Shown piece after piece: positions 7,511-30,423 of a stretch of 64,000 nucleotides of DNA. Numbering within the stretch: position 1 is the first letter of the stretch; each line of letters begins with the position of its first letter. The stretch is taken from the IMG/VR virus record IMGVR_UViG_3300026076_000002; one strand, given 5' to 3'. The DNA is from a virus. Below the pieces are notes generated by a model. The model was not told the DNA's origin. It searched no databases and was given only the letters and a program-made list of their open reading frames with translations. The translations under genes and the position numbers were made by a program.

Positions 7511-9712
7511 ATGACAGTCAACATTGAGATTAAAGGAAACCTTGCTAGACTACTAGCAACTGAGGATCTAATGGTTGAGCATAAGAATGTAGAGACTGCT
7601 TCATTTAATGTAGAGTCTCGTATTCTAACACTACCACAGTGGAAGACTGCAAGTGAGTTTGTGTATGATATGCTAGTGTCACATGAAGTAGGACATGCAC
7701 TATTCACACCATGTAGAGACTGGAATAAAGAGGATGCTTATACTCAAGTACCTATGGACTATGTAAATGTAGTTGAGGATGCAAGAATTGAGAGAATGAT
7801 GAAAGAGAAGTTTGCTGGTCTTAATAGAGACTTCTTTAATGCTTACAAGGAACTACAAGATGATAACTTCTTTGAAGTAGAATTATCTGAGTTACCAACA
7901 TATACTCTTATTGATAGAATCAACCTATACTTTAAAGTTGGTCTATACTTACCAATACCATTCAATGATGATGAGTCAGAGTTTGTAACTAGAGCATCTA
8001 AGACTGAGACTTTTGATGATGTACTTGAACTATCAAGAGATATATATGAGTATGCTAAACAGCAACAGGAAACTCAAAAGCAACAAGCAACTGCTGATCC
8101 TGAAGGTCAGGATGATGTAGAGAATACTGATGGACAATCAACTGATACATCAACTGATGCACAATCTGAAGGTAGCAGTAACAATAAGACTGAGCAAGAG
8201 GAAGGTGGAGAAGATGATGATGAAATGACTGCTGGTAAGTCAGGTGGAAATAGTATTGAGGAGTCAAGAACTCAAAGAGCATTTGATAGAAATAGTGACT
8301 CTATGATTGATAGATCAGATAGTAGAGAGACCACTTATGTTAGCATACCAGACTGCAACTTAGATAAGATAGTAATACCAGTTGATGTTGTTAAAAAGTA
8401 TCTTGATGAGCATTGGAATGATATTAGAAATGATGAGTCAACTTATGATGAAGCACACCACGAGCATAAGAGAAGATATTATGAAAACTATTGCCCATTC
8501 ATGGATGCTGAGAAACAGTATACAGAGTATAAGAGATCAGCAATGAAGGAAGTTAACTACCTTGTAAAGGAGTTTGAGATGAAGAAATCTGCTAATGCTT
8601 ATGCGAGGACTGCAACTGCTAAGACTGGAGTAATTGATACATCTAAATTGCACACTTATATGTACAATGAGGATATATTTAAGAAGATCAATGTAGTTGC
8701 TGATGGCAAGAATCATGGTCTAATATTTGTACTAGACTGGAGTGGTTCAATGTCAAACATACTACATGATAGTATGAAGCAACTATTCAACTTAGTATGG
8801 TTTTGTAAGAAAGTAAACATACCATTTGAAGTATATGCTTTCAGCAATGACGCATGGTCAATAGGTATGGATGCTGAAGATTATGATAAGAGTAAGTATG
8901 CTTACAGGTATGATGATGGACTTAAACGTCAGGATCTAGTTAACAACATTAAACTTAATGATCTTTCTATTGAAGCAGCATTTCGCATGGTGACAGTATT
9001 AGACAATACATTGAACAATAGAGATCTTGATGCACAAATGAAGAATCTATGGTTGACTTCACAATCATTTAGAAATGGTGCATACCAGCATCCACATAGA
9101 TTCCACTTATCAGGTACACCACTAAATGAAGCAATTATATCTCTTAAGAGTATAACTAAGAGATTCATTGCTGAGAATCAAGTACAGAAGTCTCACATTG
9201 TTATCTTTACTGATGGAGAAGGTTATGATGCTTCATACAATAGAAAGTCTACCTATGATGATTCAATCATGGCAACTTCAGTACCATACGATAGTGCTAT
9301 TAGAGCAAATGGTAGAACATTCCATGTACTATCTAATAGATGTGACTTCACCAATAAATTGATTGAAGCAGTAAAGTCAACACTACCAGATACATCCTTC
9401 ATTGGATTTAGGGTACTTGCTACTGGAGATACTAGATCATTTACACATTACTATGCAAGGAACTTGACTGTTGAGTACATTAAAGGTGAGATCAGAAAGA
9501 AAGGATGTGTATGTGTTAAGGATCCTAAAGGTATGGATCTAATGTTTGGTCTACCTCAAAAGAATCTTAATCTTGATACAGACTTAGATGATACAATGCC
9601 AGAAAAGGATAACATCACTAAGAGCGATATATCAAGAGCATTTAGAAAGACTTTTAAAAATAAGAAGTCTAATAAAATAGTATGTCAGACTTTCATAAGT
9701 CAAATAGCATGA
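7511..9712 (+). CDS. CobT-like protein: N-terminal HExxH metallopeptidase-like domain, acidic linker, C-terminal vWA domain
   Basis: HEVGH and NVVEDARIE; MIDAS DWSGS, GTPL and IFTDGEG. Adjacent to a MoxR/CobS ATPase. Confidence 0.85.
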   Translation: MTVNIEIKGNLARLLATEDLMVEHKNVETASFNVESRILTLPQWKTASEFVYDMLVSHEVGHALFTPCRDWNKEDAYTQVPMDYVNVVEDARIERMMKEKFAGLNRDFFNAYKELQDDNFFEVELSELPTYTLIDRINLYFKVGLYLPIPFNDDESEFVTRASKTETFDDVLELSRDIYEYAKQQQETQKQQATADPEGQDDVENTDGQSTDTSTDAQSEGSSNNKTEQEEGGEDDDEMTAGKSGGNSIEESRTQRAFDRNSDSMIDRSDSRETTYVSIPDCNLDKIVIPVDVVKKYLDEHWNDIRNDESTYDEAHHEHKRRYYENYCPFMDAEKQYTEYKRSAMKEVNYLVKEFEMKKSANAYARTATAKTGVIDTSKLHTYMYNEDIFKKINVVADGKNHGLIFVLDWSGSMSNILHDSMKQLFNLVWFCKKVNIPFEVYAFSNDAWSIGMDAEDYDKSKYAYRYDDGLKRQDLVNNIKLNDLSIEAAFRMVTVLDNTLNNRDLDAQMKNLWLTSQSFRNGAYQHPHRFHLSGTPLNEAIISLKSITKRFIAENQVQKSHIVIFTDGEGYDASYNRKSTYDDSIMATSVPYDSAIRANGRTFHVLSNRCDFTNKLIEAVKSTLPDTSFIGFRVLATGDTRSFTHYYARNLTVEYIKGEIRKKGCVCVKDPKGMDLMFGLPQKNLNLDTDLDDTMPEKDNITKSDISRAFRKTFKNKKSNKIVCQTFISQIA

Positions 9713-9892: not shown

Positions 9893-11023
9893 ATGCCACG
9901 CACTATTGACTTTACACCACACTTCGATTCTATCATCAATAAGTATGGAGTCGAATTGGATGCCGATATGATTAAAGAGTACGTTGCTTTGAATCCTGAT
10001 GTATCATACCAGACTGTCACCAAGTATCTTAATGATTTTAAGATCAAGCGTGGCAAGTGGGTAATAAACAAAAATCAAAAGGAACAGCAACCAGTAGTTC
10101 AAACTATTGCTCAACCAGTACCAACAAATACTGATAGGTCACTTAAGAAGACTACCATTGATGTAGAGAATCTTGTACCTGATAAGGATAAAACATTTGT
10201 TCCTTTTGGTGGATTTAGTGACCTAAAGAAAGTAATAGCATCAAGACAGTTCTATCCTACTTTCATTACTGGTATGAGTGGTAATGGTAAGACTTTTGGA
10301 GTAGAACAGGCATGTGCCCATTTAGGTAGAGAACTTATCAGAGTCAACATCACAGTTGAGACTGATGAGGACGATTTGATCGGTGGATTTAGACTGGTCA
10401 ATGGTGAGACCGTATGGCATAATGGACCAGTTATTGAAGCACTTGAAAGAGGATGTGTATTATTACTTGATGAGATTGATTTAGCATCAAATAAAATACT
10501 ATGCTTACAATCTATTCTTGAAGGCAAAGGAGTATTCCTTAAAAAGATAGGTGAGTATGTTAAACCTACTGCTGGATTCACAGTTGTTGCTACTGCCAAC
10601 ACTAAAGGTAAAGGTAGTGATGATGGAAGGTTTATTGGCACTAATGTATTGAATGAAGCGTTCCTTGAGCGATTCCCTATTACATTTGAGCAAGCATATC
10701 CTACTCCAAAAACTGAGAACAGGATACTTAGAGCATTATGTGAACAACTCAACATACCTATGATAGGTGAGCATGAGGACTTCATTGTACATCTATGCTC
10801 ATGGGCAGAGATAGTCAGGAAGACTTTTGCTGAAGGTGGAGTTGATGAGATTATCTCAACTAGGAGACTTACTCACATTATGAAAGCATACTCCATTTTT
10901 GGAGATAAAATGAAAGCAGTTGATCTATGCTTGAATAGATTTGATGATGAGACCAAAGAGTCTTTCAGACAACTCTATACTAAGTTAGACCCTACTGTTA
11001 CTATCACTCCAGAATCGGAGTGA
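9893..11023 (+). CDS. cobS: CobS-like MoxR-family AAA+ ATPase
   Basis: Walker A GMSGNGKT, ETDEDDLIGG, Walker B LLLDEID, TANTKG, LNEAFLERF and ISTRRL. Confidence 0.92.
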   Translation: MPRTIDFTPHFDSIINKYGVELDADMIKEYVALNPDVSYQTVTKYLNDFKIKRGKWVINKNQKEQQPVVQTIAQPVPTNTDRSLKKTTIDVENLVPDKDKTFVPFGGFSDLKKVIASRQFYPTFITGMSGNGKTFGVEQACAHLGRELIRVNITVETDEDDLIGGFRLVNGETVWHNGPVIEALERGCVLLLDEIDLASNKILCLQSILEGKGVFLKKIGEYVKPTAGFTVVATANTKGKGSDDGRFIGTNVLNEAFLERFPITFEQAYPTPKTENRILRALCEQLNIPMIGEHEDFIVHLCSWAEIVRKTFAEGGVDEIISTRRLTHIMKAYSIFGDKMKAVDLCLNRFDDETKESFRQLYTKLDPTVTITPESE

Positions 11024-11058
11024 TATACATATAATGTACTTCATTCTCCCAGTTTACC

Positions 11059-11187
11059 ATGAACCCTTACCTACTTGCATTTGAACCGACTGAGTGGTAC
11101 AATGAGGAGTATGAGAACTGGGATGAGGATGATTATAGAGATCAAACAGATCACTATGAGGCATTATCGGTCAAATTCTATTCATAA
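11059..11187 (+). CDS. Small very acidic protein (42 aa)
   Basis: Hand translation MNPYLLAFEPTEWYNEEYENWDEDDYRDQTDHYEALSVKFYS. Confidence 0.5.
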   Translation: MNPYLLAFEPTEWYNEEYENWDEDDYRDQTDHYEALSVKFYS

Positions 11188-11208
11188 GCAATGCTTATCA
11201 TTAGATAC

Positions 11209-11237
11209 TTGACAAGCACTTCAATCCATAGTATACT
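11209..11237 (+). promoter_or_regulatory. Sigma70-type promoter
   Basis: TTGACA-17 nt-TATACT. Confidence 0.85.
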
Positions 11238-11243
11238 TTGTAT

Positions 11244-11480
11244 ATGAATCGGGGTTGAGCAACTAGGAGAGCATCACTGCCGATCCCTGAGAACTGAGTT
11301 AGTACCTAACCTTGTAGTTAGGTGAAGCACCACTTGACCAGTTCAGACATCTCGGAGTGTAAACTGTCCGTCTTATGACGTTGCTTGTAAAACACTTTCC
11401 CTTCTTTGTTATGTCCACGTATGACTCAAAACTGCTAGGGTGTACCGCCTCAAACTATTACCTACATTAGTTAGAGGCAT
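11244..11480 (+). ncRNA. Candidate structured RNA / long structured 5' leader
   Basis: Follows a near-consensus promoter, has no sizeable ORF and is richer in GC than its flanks. Nested stems: ATCGG/CCGAT, CTGAG/CTCGG, AACTG/CAGTT, ACCTAAC/GTTAGGT, AGTGT/ACACT, CGTC/GACG, GCCTC.AACTA/TAGTT.GAGGC. Confidence 0.5.
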
Positions 11481-11501
11481 TATTCTATATCATGCTAAAT
11501 C

Positions 11502-11717
11502 ATGCAAATCTCTGGTTCATCCGCTATCACATCCGTATCATTTGGTGACAACAACAGCGTTGCTGTTAAGTACACTACTAACGATAAGGAGTATGGATTT
11601 ACAGCGAAAGATCAGAATGTGATTAAGGCAGGTCTTGAGACCACCATTTCAAAAGGTGAGTCTGTTGGTCGTCTTATTGCTGGTTACCGTAGAAACGGTC
11701 AACTACAAGCAGTTTGA
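11502..11717 (+). CDS. KTSC-domain-like small protein
   Basis: SSAITSVSF..VAVKY...EYGF.....SVGRLI matches the length and spacing of KTSC domains (SS.I..V.Y...L.V.F..G..Y.Y...S.G). Confidence 0.5.
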   Translation: MQISGSSAITSVSFGDNNSVAVKYTTNDKEYGFTAKDQNVIKAGLETTISKGESVGRLIAGYRRNGQLQAV

Positions 11718-11759
11718 TCTTTAAATACAACTGAATACTTTTATTAATTAATTTAATAT

Positions 11760-11790
11760 AACCCCTATTGAGTAGGGGTTTTATTGTTTT
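11760..11790 (+). terminator. Rho-independent terminator
   Basis: AACCCCTA-ttgag-TAGGGGTT followed by a T-rich run. Confidence 0.75.
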
Positions 11791-11810
11791 TACACTAAGG
11801 AGTTTTTAAA

Positions 11811-12404
11811 ATGTCATGTGACAATCATTTGGATTATAACACAGTCTGGGAGGCAATGAACTCTTTAGATGAGGAGATAAGAAACTTTCAACAAGCGATT
11901 GAAATGTCAAACGATTTGTTGACTGAGGCAAGGGAACATGGTAATGAGTCTATCATAAAGACTGCTGAATTACTACAACGATATGTTGACTGGCAATGGC
12001 ATAGGTTAGAGTCAGTTGGTGTTACAGCATGGAATGAGACAGTTGTTAAGTTGAAAGACTCAGAAGAACCACTTGTTATCAACACAGGACTAGGTACTGA
12101 GTCAGCAACATATAATGTTGATCCAACATCATTTATTACTGATGATGATTATACATTGAACATTCCTGAAGATATGACAGTCAGTTTAAATACTGATGCT
12201 GAGATTCCAGGAATTGACATAAGTGATCTAGGTTATGCTGGTCTCACTCCTGAGAGTATATCATTAGATACTGATGATATTATAACAACTGGTATTCATA
12301 CTGACTACTTAAATGATGCAGCGTATGGACTAGGTGAGGATAAACAACAAGCAGATGAGTTATGGGATGCAGTTGGGTTTAATCCTGATGAGGAGGTCAA
12401 ATGA
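11811..12404 (+). CDS. Hypothetical protein with acidic C-terminal half
   Basis: ORF with AAGGAG SD; D/E/T-rich tail. Confidence 0.7.
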   Translation: MSCDNHLDYNTVWEAMNSLDEEIRNFQQAIEMSNDLLTEAREHGNESIIKTAELLQRYVDWQWHRLESVGVTAWNETVVKLKDSEEPLVINTGLGTESATYNVDPTSFITDDDYTLNIPEDMTVSLNTDAEIPGIDISDLGYAGLTPESISLDTDDIITTGIHTDYLNDAAYGLGEDKQQADELWDAVGFNPDEEVK

Positions 12405-12613
12405 AACTTGAAATAGATGAAAACGATAGAGAACTATTGTTTGAATCATTATGTCATTATGATATGCACAATGAGTTAAACTCAAAAGAGAATGATTCAT
12501 TCCATTATCTCTATGGTGAACTTTCACCTTCATTCACACCTGATGAAATAAAACAGAATAAGGAAGTGGCAGCAAGGGTAAGGGCAACAGTTCCACCAGA
12601 GACATATACATAA
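12401..12613 (+). CDS. Hypothetical protein
   Basis: GAGGAGG SD and ATGA overlap with the upstream gene. Confidence 0.7.
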   Translation: MKLEIDENDRELLFESLCHYDMHNELNSKENDSFHYLYGELSPSFTPDEIKQNKEVAARVRATVPPETYT

Positions 12614-12656
12614 TTGTCACAAGCACCCTTAACAGGGTGCTTTTTTATGTTATAAT
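12601..12656 (+). promoter_or_regulatory. Early promoter fused with terminator hairpin (PeSL-like cassette), copy A
   Basis: GACATAT-acat-AATTGTCAC-AAGCACCCT-taac-AGGGTGCTTTTTT-atgt-TATAAT. Confidence 0.8.
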
Positions 12657-29133: not shown

Positions 29134-30423
29134 ATGTGGATAGATGAGAACCCAAATAAAATATGGACTCAAGAAGAGTATGAGTCTATAAAAAATAGTA
29201 GTGTAATATGCAATTTGCCATTTCAGCAGTTGCGGAATGGTACTGGGATAAATTATCAACCATGTTGTTGGGCTAGGACTCTGACCCCAAATGGTCCTCA
29301 GAACACGGTTCCTTTTGATCATTTCAAAGGAGAAGAGTTTAATGAATTGCGAAAAGATATGCTATTGGGCAAGAAGACTCCTAGATTAAAGCATTCTTGC
29401 GATTTATGTTGGAAAAATGAGAAAGAAAGTGGATGGTCGCCAAGAATGGAAAATCTACTTAATGTAGATTGTCTGCAAAACTTTGATAAAGAAGGAAAGA
29501 TGGTTGAAACAGACCATAGGTTCATTAAGTTAGAATTAAATGCATTTGGTAACTACTGCAATCTTCAATGTTATGAGTGTCAGGTAGACAACTCTAGTGG
29601 TAGACTACAAGCAGCAAAACAACTTGGTAAGATAGATCCAAAATGGTTGGGATTATTACAACGCTATTCATTTGTTGATAGGGATGTTAAAAAGGTCAAT
29701 CCAGAGCAATGGCGTAAATTTAAAAATGATATTATCAAGCATGCAAAGAATATTAGGGTTATAGTCTTTTGTGGGGGAGAACCCATGATGATGAAATCGC
29801 ATTTTGAACTTCTAGATGAATTAATAGAAGCAGGTGAAGCGAAAGGTATTGAATTGGGGTATGTTTCAAATATGACACATACTACTATTGATAAGATGAA
29901 GAAGTATCTTGACGCTTTTAGGTGGACAGAGTTTCAATGGTCTGTAGATGGTTTGACTGAACGTAACCATTGGTTGAGATATCCTACAAATTGGGATACT
30001 ACTATCAATAACGTATTTGCAATGCGAGACTATCTCCATCATTCTAATCCAAATTGGAAGATAGGTAATTTTAAATGTACTATAACACCAAGTATCCTTG
30101 GTATATTGCAGTTACATAAAACAGTACAGTGGATGAAGGATAATGATATATTTGGTGATGATAATGTACTTTTGAATAGAATTGAAAACCCTGCATTTTG
30201 TCAAACCCGACATTTACCAGATGAAGTAAAAGAACAGATAGCAGATAATGTGAAAAGTGTATCCGATCATATATACCAGGACATGATGCAACCACGGAGT
30301 GAACATCTGTGGAAAATTGCATTAGAATATTTTGATAAAACTGACCAAGTACGTGGAGACACGAATTGGAAAGAAACATTCCCTGAATTAGCGAAGTATG
30401 CTTTGGAGTACCCACTATCTTGA
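29134..30423 (+). CDS. Radical SAM protein with N-terminal SPASM/twitch-like Cys cluster (paralogue of 20864)
   Basis: CNLQCYEC, GGEPM, SVDG and LRYP..W. Confidence 0.88.
   Translation: MWIDENPNKIWTQEEYESIKNSSVICNLPFQQLRNGTGINYQPCCWARTLTPNGPQNTVPFDHFKGEEFNELRKDMLLGKKTPRLKHSCDLCWKNEKESGWSPRMENLLNVDCLQNFDKEGKMVETDHRFIKLELNAFGNYCNLQCYECQVDNSSGRLQAAKQLGKIDPKWLGLLQRYSFVDRDVKKVNPEQWRKFKNDIIKHAKNIRVIVFCGGEPMMMKSHFELLDELIEAGEAKGIELGYVSNMTHTTIDKMKKYLDAFRWTEFQWSVDGLTERNHWLRYPTNWDTTINNVFAMRDYLHHSNPNWKIGNFKCTITPSILGILQLHKTVQWMKDNDIFGDDNVLLNRIENPAFCQTRHLPDEVKEQIADNVKSVSDHIYQDMMQPRSEHLWKIALEYFDKTDQVRGDTNWKETFPELAKYALEYPLS

Follow-up and report, generated by a model that had tools for sequence, protein, structure and literature searches.

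Several orphan structured RNA motifs, namely manA (RF01745), wcaG (RF01761) and PhotoRC-II, have reportedly been described in T4-like cyanophages. The ompA leader of Escherichia coli is said to begin with a stabilising 5'-terminal stem-loop, and the autoregulated leader of T4 gene 32 consists of a structured 5' element followed by an unstructured tract that is occupied by the encoded single-strand binder. In the T4-type coliphages RB49 and phi1, promoter-early stem-loop (PeSL) cassettes were found (Arbiol et al. 2010, PMC2839356); these have plain G/C hairpins, placed within or next to the promoter, that act as terminators, and they number about 50 per genome (PMC2839356). We analysed a stretch of 64,000 nucleotides (nt) from an uncultured T4-like marine cyanomyophage (IMG/VR record IMGVR_UViG_3300026076_000002), hereafter called the window, in which an early promoter, a leader of 260 nt, the gene of a 71-amino-acid (71-aa) KTSC-like protein and a terminator follow one another at 11209-11790. 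The leader is a composite of separately evolving modules: a long nested hairpin (Module A), a second folded module at its tip (Module F) and a proximal leader next to the gene. Module A is an RNA family absent from Rfam, and Module F is a genuine, widespread and exchangeable RNA module that is likewise absent from Rfam.

An earlier note on this DNA, made from the letters alone, had folded the RNA by eye into four consecutive domains. This arrangement was not upheld, and we found three parts instead: the nested hairpin (11244-11409), the module at its tip (11287-11349) and the proximal leader (11410-11478). The proposed first domain (11248-11284) is not separate, its bases being the 5' halves of long-range helices whose 3' halves lie within 11352-11409, and the CGTC-ttat-GACG hairpin of the third is broken in two close relatives (CAAC...GACG in L019 and CAAC...AACG in L020). 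The second (11287-11355, with its ACCTAAC/GTTAGGT hairpin) is real and is a copy of the widespread exchangeable Module F, and the fourth (11447-11478) is backed by a compensatory change from A-U to G-C at 11453/11472, seen in L019 and in the metatranscriptome contig X7. The homologous loci behind these comparisons, 16 viral and 49 metagenomic, were gathered by an alignment-based scan. The RNA is shared at the nucleotide level in only four Tara contigs (L017-L020, 91-96% identity); in more distant loci, the similarity begins at about 11480-11500, just 5' of the start codon. In the alignment of the close relatives (A2), the flanks of the RNA are nearly invariant and the tip is hypervariable, with window positions 11298-11333 missing from L018 and other hairpins occupying the tip in L019 and L020. 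The helix GAACUG/CAGUUC is maintained by a paired one-base deletion in L020 and by three double changes in L019, and helix P2 (11257-11263/11380-11386) carries a compensatory change from G-C to A-U in L017. Over the five close relatives in A2, 98.9% of the cells of the drawn helices are paired and five pairs are doubly changed, against 41-48% with slid partners, in an alignment where most pairs never vary and from one sequence of which the structure was derived. The minimum free energy (MFE) fold of 11244-11412 contains every helix of the nested hairpin. The folding energy is only modestly unusual (z = -1.64 on the + strand versus -0.57 on the - strand; z = -1.76 for 11244-11412), and the case for a structured RNA is carried by the comparative evidence and not by folding energy alone.

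The upstream regions of homologues with about 65% identity proved to be a mosaic of recurring blocks, among which the Module A block sits right after the promoter behind a cobS-like gene. Its general form is P1, P2, UAG, the P3 hairpin, ACAUGAYGUU (P2'), GUAAAA... and P1'. A first loose DNA pattern for this form was abandoned, as it returned 116 loci of which almost all were chance and one was real. A covariance model (R1) built from six copies recovered Module A in 14 of the 65 homologue loci and missed the window copy with its long P3 insert; used after pattern scans, it found copies in L120, L182, L185, L187 and L188, which have no cobS-like gene or 71-aa homologue. We rebuilt the model from 12 distinct copies (R2), in which 91% of the cells are paired and 10 of the 18 pairs are doubly changed. 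The covariation score of 0.55, compared with at most 0.09 for slid partners and not reached by any of 500 shuffles, was obtained from an alignment that was fitted to the model and leans towards structure. The window copy (11247-11405) is the top R2 match in 5 kb and covers the full model (13.8 bits, E = 0.022), the score being weak because of a 105-nt insert in P3. The R2 alignment of this copy agrees with the by-eye drawing, with the insert and one extra pair in P2. Module A is the top match in each of the four relatives as well (17.5 bits in L020, 15.7 in L018, 12.7 in L017 and 10.9 in L019). The membership of the window RNA in Module A has modest support, to which its synteny behind the cobS-like gene and the promoter adds.

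By blastn and R2, one strong copy was found in each of the cultured phages S-SSM4 and S-SSM6b (57 bits), P-SSM7 (54.5 bits), P-SSM2 (31.7 bits) and P-SSM5 (31.9 bits), and also in AG-345-F15 (40.7 bits). No Module A was found with R2 in Syn9, S-PM2, P-SSM4, P-HM2 or S-RSM4, and S-B43 and S-CAM1 gave no clear copy, with weak R2 matches only elsewhere in the genome. The internal loop sequences are conserved across several cyanophage genera. The copies of cultured phages carry an extra outer stem (GGGAAAACAAAC.../...GUUUUGUUUUCUC, then UCACC) that starts at the predicted first transcribed base, as seen in S-SSM4, P-SSM7 and P-SSM2 and also in L182, and a -10-like hexamer lies 6-18 nt 5' of the module in 13 of 17 copies. 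The window copy agrees with this placement, the promoter at 11209-11237 being followed by the foot of the hairpin at 11244, in sense orientation upstream of an open reading frame (ORF). In S-SSM4, Module A stands behind TTGACA-17-TATAAT and before a basic 30-aa ORF and tRNA-Val; in P-SSM7 and P-SSM2, it lies between a DNA methyltransferase gene and unrelated hypothetical genes. The S-SSM4 ORF (HQ316583.1, L189:1416-1508) is unannotated, encodes a highly basic peptide and has a GAGGAAG ribosome-binding site. We also considered whether Module A ends in a terminator-like U-tract, which holds for a subset of the copies only. The 64-kb window has a single copy of each module and no repeated array. 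A weak R1 match at 30187-30248 (14 bits, E = 0.36), where GUAAAAG comes behind a short helix, is probably due to chance.

Module F is defined by UUAGUAC, a tip hairpin and then UGAAGCACCNCUU, all within a closing helix, and the exact pattern occurs in the window at 11299-11335. At least 84 IMG/VR stretches carry this exact pattern of 19 bases, for which we estimate a chance expectation of about 1e-5. Among 15 copies in an ungapped MAFFT alignment, 96.4% of the cells are paired and 8 of the 15 pairs are doubly changed, and the fold has z = -2.68. The module was found in diverse settings, forming a 5'-terminal hairpin or lying within the P3 loop of Module A, the bare outer stem or other modules. 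It stands alone in L043, L044, L060 and AG-345-F15, and metatranscriptome contigs show its core fused to flanks that belong to two other modules. Depending on the phage, modules are nested or arranged in tandem. Even among relatives that are 91-96% identical, Module F may be present, absent or replaced, and the closest relative, L018, lacks it. The invariant G-U pairs of Module F, together with the G-U pairs of Module A, would be A-C mismatches on the other strand, indicating that the fold belongs to the sense RNA. A search against Rfam 15 (4227 families) gave no match at the gathering score in the whole window or in 12 related loci; at E <= 10 nothing fell within 11238-11500, and at E <= 1 no match lay on the modules in 10 related loci. 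The RNA family, which the earlier note did not recognise, thus matches nothing in Rfam. The weak matches DPB, STnc260 and BsrC lie on the terminator or outside the RNA and were dismissed as chance. A blastn search with 11000-11900 against the phage collection found no match.

Table 1. Coordinates of the features in the window and of related elements; positions preceded by an L number belong to that locus.
Feature	Position	Strand	Description and basis
Sigma-70-type early promoter	11209-11237	+	TTGACA (11209-11214), 17-nt spacer, TATACT (11232-11237)
Module A-type nested hairpin	11244-11409	+	R2 covariance model, MFE, pairing in close relatives
Module A outer helices	P0 11244-11248/11405-11409; P1 11251-11254/11398-11401; P2 11257-11263/11380-11386		
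Module A P3 helices	P3a 11266-11271/11364-11369; P3b 11275-11283/11352-11359; P3c 11291-11296/11339-11344		
Module A conserved junctions	11264-11266; 11373-11379; 11387-11393		UAG; UUAUGAC; GUAAAAC
Module F	11287-11349	+	about 50 nt, nested in the P3 tip of Module A; pattern, covariation
Module F parts	helix 11298-11302/11334-11338; tip hairpin 11304-11310/11317-11323		closing stem; helix GUUAG/UUGAC; tip hairpin; loop strands UAC and GUGAAGCACCAC
Proximal leader, part 1	11410-11446	+	hairpin GUC (11413-11415)/GAC (11423-11425), then single-stranded UCAAAACU spacer (11426-11433)
Proximal leader, part 2	11447-11478	+	hairpin GCCUC.AACUA/UAGUU.GAGGC, in MFE and centroid
Gene of 71-aa KTSC-fold protein	11502-11717	+	phrog_4357
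Intrinsic terminator	11760-11790	+	hairpin 11760-11780 (9-bp stem, 3-nt loop), then T-run
VWA/CobT-like gene	7511-9712		upstream of the RNA unit
CobS-like AAA ATPase gene	9893-11023		upstream; Pfam AAA_5 and phrog_249
Module B sites	L023:540-640; L026:770-930; L035:700-880; L040:420-560; L207:1380-1450		L207 is P-SSM2
Module C sites	L021:60-130; L024:1380-1450; L032:1345-1410; L207:1450-1510		L207 is P-SSM2
Second promoter class	L232, L250, L261, L257; also L003, L029, L120, L188		upstream of modules

The frame of the unit is largely as the earlier note had read it. The promoter is present with 11 of 12 consensus positions, is joint-best in the 5 kb covered by a consensus scan and is unchanged in the four close relatives; from its spacing, transcription is predicted to start at about 11244. 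Nothing longer than 39 aa is encoded wholly inside 11238-11501, which bears out the ORF-poor stretch of about 260 nt, and the scan placed the terminator with its T-run after the gene, again unchanged in close relatives. The CobS-like ATPase upstream shares 62-65% identity with CobS of Synechococcus phages, and a tRNA scan of the whole 64 kb found none. The gap between this gene and the promoter is filled by a very acidic 42-aa ORF (11059-11187), whose 3' part is kept in the four close relatives and which had no Pfam or PHROG match. For the two genes that follow the terminator (11811-12613; 197 aa and 70 aa), no separate promoter is predicted ahead of the next terminator-promoter element at 12621-12656, and they would be expressed only by read-through of the terminator at 11760-11790. 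Contigs from RNA libraries bridge it (11302-11988, 11302-11930 and 11425-11912). At least 13 runs recorded as RNA contain the stretch (20 containing runs in total, from 12 studies), as Logan contigs only, which carry no starts, ends or strand and whose breaks at 11302 are branching at the variable module and not transcript ends.

The 71-aa protein matches phrog_4357 (E = 2.6e-10), and a protein search found homologues at 96%, 90% and about 68% identity, while a single-protein scan of viral contigs found no match. It is KTSC-like by fold, in line with the earlier note, although not by Pfam. No Pfam match was obtained for the window protein at E <= 1, let alone at the gathering threshold of KTSC (PF13619); among 26 relatives, KTSC is the most frequent weak match, with 3 of them reaching at best E = 0.0019. 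Profile searching of solved structures with the protein gave nothing useful. The AlphaFold2 model has a predicted local distance difference test (pLDDT) score of 89, and its best match among 992 solved chains is the KTSC protein 7x8c_A (Z 7.9, root-mean-square deviation 2.1 Å, 63 of 69 residues); the next entry scores about 2 Z units lower. Foldseek against 7x8c gave a template-modelling (TM) score of 0.60 over 68 columns, but with E = 0.84. The model shares with KTSC and 7x8c, which comes from Methanolobus vulcani, a length of about 70 aa and the order of three strands, two helices and one strand, and it differs in lacking a Pfam match and in its identity of 19% to 7x8c. The SSxI and ES-G-K/R motifs of the window protein are shared with what we take to be the KTSC consensus. 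On its predicted fold, the protein belongs to a divergent phage KTSC subfamily (phrog_4357). Binding of single-stranded nucleic acid by KTSC domains, also invoked in the earlier note, is backed for DNA by the title of the 7x8c paper, which names a KTSC family protein a single-stranded DNA-binding protein (Tian et al. 2022, cited in PMC11237433); elsewhere, a KTSC protein is called DNA-binding in a passing mention (PMC9503650). The N-terminal extensions of the homologues P0001, P0005 and P0006 were discarded as gene-caller artefacts, and in L020 a 1-nt insertion fuses the upstream frame to the homologue gene.

Of the RNA, only the proximal leader accompanies the gene across homologues. A hairpin followed by YUAAAC/G lies at -80 to -15 from the start codon in 58 of 63 homologue loci, and among the loci collected the type-1 version of this hairpin-spacer motif occurs only before the KTSC-like gene family. 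The stem of part 1 covaries by eye (AGUCAU/AUGACU versus ACUCAU/AUGAGU; AGAC/GUCU and CGUC/GACG). In the window this stem has 3 bp, is weak and is absent from the MFE fold, and a scan of the window for a hairpin plus TAAAC gave mostly chance matches and did not recover it. In distant homologue loci the nucleotide similarity extends to about 11780-11800, so that the terminator moves together with the gene. As judged from these alignments, the proximal leader, the KTSC-like gene and the terminator make up a conserved gene cassette. In S-B43 and S-CAM1, we observed 270-350 nt of non-coding DNA before the KTSC-like homologue, with a common block ATAGGTAWTGTGCGG..GTTGTTGG.TTAGCAC (L208:300-360 and L209:375-435, respectively) and A/T-rich direct repeats GAGTTTTTCAG, unlike the window RNA.

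The large RNA and the protein are found apart. A tblastn search of the phage collection with the 71-aa protein found homologues only in S-B43 and S-CAM1, whose upstream regions do not resemble the window RNA, and none in S-SSM4, P-SSM2, P-SSM5 or P-SSM7 or in the loci L120, L182, L185 and L188. In these same four phages and four loci, Module A precedes unrelated ORFs, and in S-SSM4 a tRNA too. The ORFs after copies of Module A or F include KTSC-like proteins, DUF7294, a weak DUF5457, the PSSM2_070 family, the basic peptide with its tRNA and others, and Pfam gave only domains of unknown function for the genes downstream of the other copies. Conversely, most 71-aa homologues have just a promoter and a leader of about 60 nt. 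Module A without the homologue and homologues without Module A together indicate that the large RNA and the protein are distributed independently, and the idea that the large RNA is a dedicated partner of the 71-aa protein is largely refuted. The RNA-protein module envisaged in the earlier note is therefore not supported, each component being found without the other, and its alternative of a riboswitch leader is argued against by the unrelated downstream genes. One family of about 148 aa (M[AG]TRSRIGLQL..HHWDGYPEWLG) recurs after Module A or F leaders (L257:613-1056, L195:1666-2106 and, as PSSM2_070, L207:1518-1964) and had no Pfam match; its leader contains Module A in P-SSM2, where no Module F pattern was seen, both modules in AG-345-F15 and Module F only in an IMG/VR contig.

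Other blocks recur in the relatives. Module B (GGCAAGG..GGGU, a variable hairpin, ..CGAACCUCUUGU..GUAAGUCCC) is a folded block in the stretch from the cobS-like gene to the small gene. P3 of Module A encloses it in P-SSM5 and L024, whereas in P-SSM2 it lies downstream of Module A; it had no Rfam match. Module C (ACGAGGAAAGGCGAAAGUGCCUCGUAGGU..CUACUAAAAGAC) recurs in the same intergenic hotspot, with a related form in P-SSM2 and P-SSM5. Many modules are preceded by a second class of promoter, in which a palindromic GTGTGACAG..ACAAAGTGTCAC box or a AACTGGCACACACCCCC box is followed by a -10 hexamer, with no TTGACA.

Our best explanation, which we hold with about even confidence, is that this locus is an early unit of a cyanomyophage with a composite leader in which Module A acts in cis on the fate of the transcript. 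In most copies, the 5' strand of Module A begins at or close to the predicted transcript start, and its tip accepts inserted cargo, which in the window is Module F. The mechanism, which we infer, may be shielding of the 5' end against RNase E or RNase J, a processing site or attenuation; a stable leader RNA of about 165 nt would be a likely by-product, and Module A would work independently of the KTSC-like protein. Several points weigh against this explanation. The metatranscriptome contigs may include DNA, and one of them crosses the promoter. At 13.8 bits the window copy scores low, P0 and P1 are weak helices in it, and the U-richness after the hairpin is only modest (mean 0.38 versus 0.31 in the background). 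A stabiliser of general use should be present at many early genes, but Module A has one copy per genome, and its strongly conserved loops suggest a specific partner. In addition, the L030 type, L011 and L040 have a second promoter between Module A and the gene, so that the gene there does not need Module A as its leader. The main rival, which we regard as unlikely though well short of negligible, is that Module A with its cargo is a stand-alone small RNA that acts in trans, for instance as a decoy or sponge for a nuclease or RNA-binding protein of the host, and that the gene downstream is incidental. The single copy per genome, the loops conserved across cyanophage genera, the L030-type order of promoter, Module A, second promoter and gene, the RNA-gene neighbourhood of the S-SSM4 copy beside tRNA-Val and the U-rich tract after several copies all suit such an RNA. 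Most copies, however, have no clear terminator behind them, Module A is always in sense orientation and close upstream of an ORF, and in L001 and L023 another module precedes it, so that it is not 5'-terminal.

Action of Module A in cis is compatible with a further proposal, to which we give a similarly low probability, that the KTSC-like protein represses its own translation through the proximal leader (11410-11501). The hairpin and YUAAAC/G are kept across 43-100% protein identity and different promoter types, the type-1 motif was seen nowhere else among the collected loci, and the predicted fold is that of proteins described, by title or in passing, as binding single-stranded DNA (PMC11237433) or DNA (PMC9503650). 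Against this, the proposal draws on motif conservation and a predicted fold, binding being putative; the leader of the window itself is degenerate (3-bp stem, CAAAAC instead of CUAAAC, 21-nt spacer), the L002 type has CUAAAG within a loop and not after a hairpin, and the S-B43 and S-CAM1 homologues have different upstream regions. The autoregulatory reading is plausible only for the proximal leader. A dedicated RNA-protein module, with the large RNA as cognate ligand of the protein or as a decoy that it loads, seems improbable to us. RNA and gene do lie side by side in the window and its four close relatives, as they do in about 14 further loci, and the fold of the protein is one of nucleic-acid binding, but Module A occurs in phages and loci with no detectable homologue, and most homologue loci, as well as S-B43 and S-CAM1, lack Module A. 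Still less probable is that Module A or F is the aptamer of a metabolite-sensing riboswitch; conserved internal-loop bases, variable tip lengths and, in some copies, a closing stem followed by a U-rich tract are reminiscent of one, but the downstream genes encode unrelated small proteins with no metabolic theme, nesting of modules is unusual for an aptamer, and there is no conserved expression platform. It is also rather doubtful that the modules are mainly recombination joints or selfish cassettes of the PeSL kind with no function for the phage at the RNA level. The stretch from the cobS-like gene to the small gene is indeed a mosaic hotspot, in which Module F comes and goes among close relatives and the same core is found with different flanks, and PeSLs set a precedent in T4-type phages (PMC2839356). 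Covarying pairs, strand-specific G-U pairs and loops conserved across genera nevertheless point to selection on the folded RNA, and the window has one copy per module instead of a repeated array. Beyond our preferred explanation of Module A acting in cis, we tentatively suggest, as a possibility short of an even chance, that Modules A and F, together with the B- and C-type modules, make up a kit of exchangeable RNA devices that head early transcripts. Each would decide the fate of its transcript by binding a specific factor of host or phage origin (ribonuclease, RNA polymerase or RNA-binding protein), with Module F as a mobile cassette that inserts into the loops of other RNAs.

Two covarying RNA families missing from Rfam are thus present in model cyanophages that were sequenced two decades ago (P-SSM2, P-SSM7 and S-SSM4). 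The modules also occur in many ocean viral contigs, and marine metatranscriptome libraries contain the sequence. They stand at the very beginning of early transcripts, the point at which these abundant viruses seize control of Prochlorococcus and Synechococcus, and their plug-in architecture, one folded module nested within another, is unusual. Their presence in cultured phages makes a function in RNA protection, attenuation or host-factor capture directly testable. The result also corrects the attractive but unsupported pairing of the large RNA with the KTSC-like protein.

We compared the parts of this leader with known systems. For the proximal leader, the comparison was with coremin (xrRNA-C) of plant RNA viruses, an element that stalls Xrn1; cyanobacteria have RNase J and not Xrn1. 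Stalling by coremin requires a 4-bp first hairpin with the loop YGAD or YGNNAD (PMC10520033), and a spacer of 8-10 nt (UUAAACUAC) leads directly to a second hairpin (Dilweg, Peer and Olsthoorn 2023, PMC10520033). The proximal leader resembles it in the succession of a short hairpin, a spacer (UAAACUA in type-1 relatives, GUUAAACUAC in coremin) and a second hairpin. In the window, however, the spacer is UCAAAACU and the second hairpin at 11447 follows after 21 nt instead of 8-10, and neither the loop of the window (CACGUAU, on a 3-bp stem) nor those of relatives (GUCGU, CUGAGAU and CUGAAUA) fit YGAD or YGNNAD. We therefore rejected coremin/xrRNA-C as an identity for the proximal leader, its loops being off consensus and the window spacer seemingly too long. 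With the ompA leader, Module A shares a helix that begins at or next to the first transcribed base, and the leader as a whole recalls that of T4 gene 32, in which a structured 5' element gives way to an unstructured tract. Those leaders are simple and gene-specific, whereas the RNA described here is a conserved multi-helix family with sequence-conserved loops, for which stabilisation or binding is putative. The likeness to PeSLs lies in a strong sigma-70-like early promoter combined with a stem-loop, in the hyperplastic region of small ORFans and in modular shuffling; the difference is that here a multi-helix RNA of 70-165 nt lies downstream of the transcription start, with conserved loops and one copy per genome. 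Identity with PeSLs was rejected accordingly, since the promoter is present but the transcribed RNA is complex and has a single copy in the 64-kb window. The modules have in common with manA, wcaG and PhotoRC-II that they are conserved RNA folds with covarying pairs, located in intergenic leaders of marine cyanomyophages. They differ from these motifs in that they have no Rfam match, nest in one another and precede unrelated genes.

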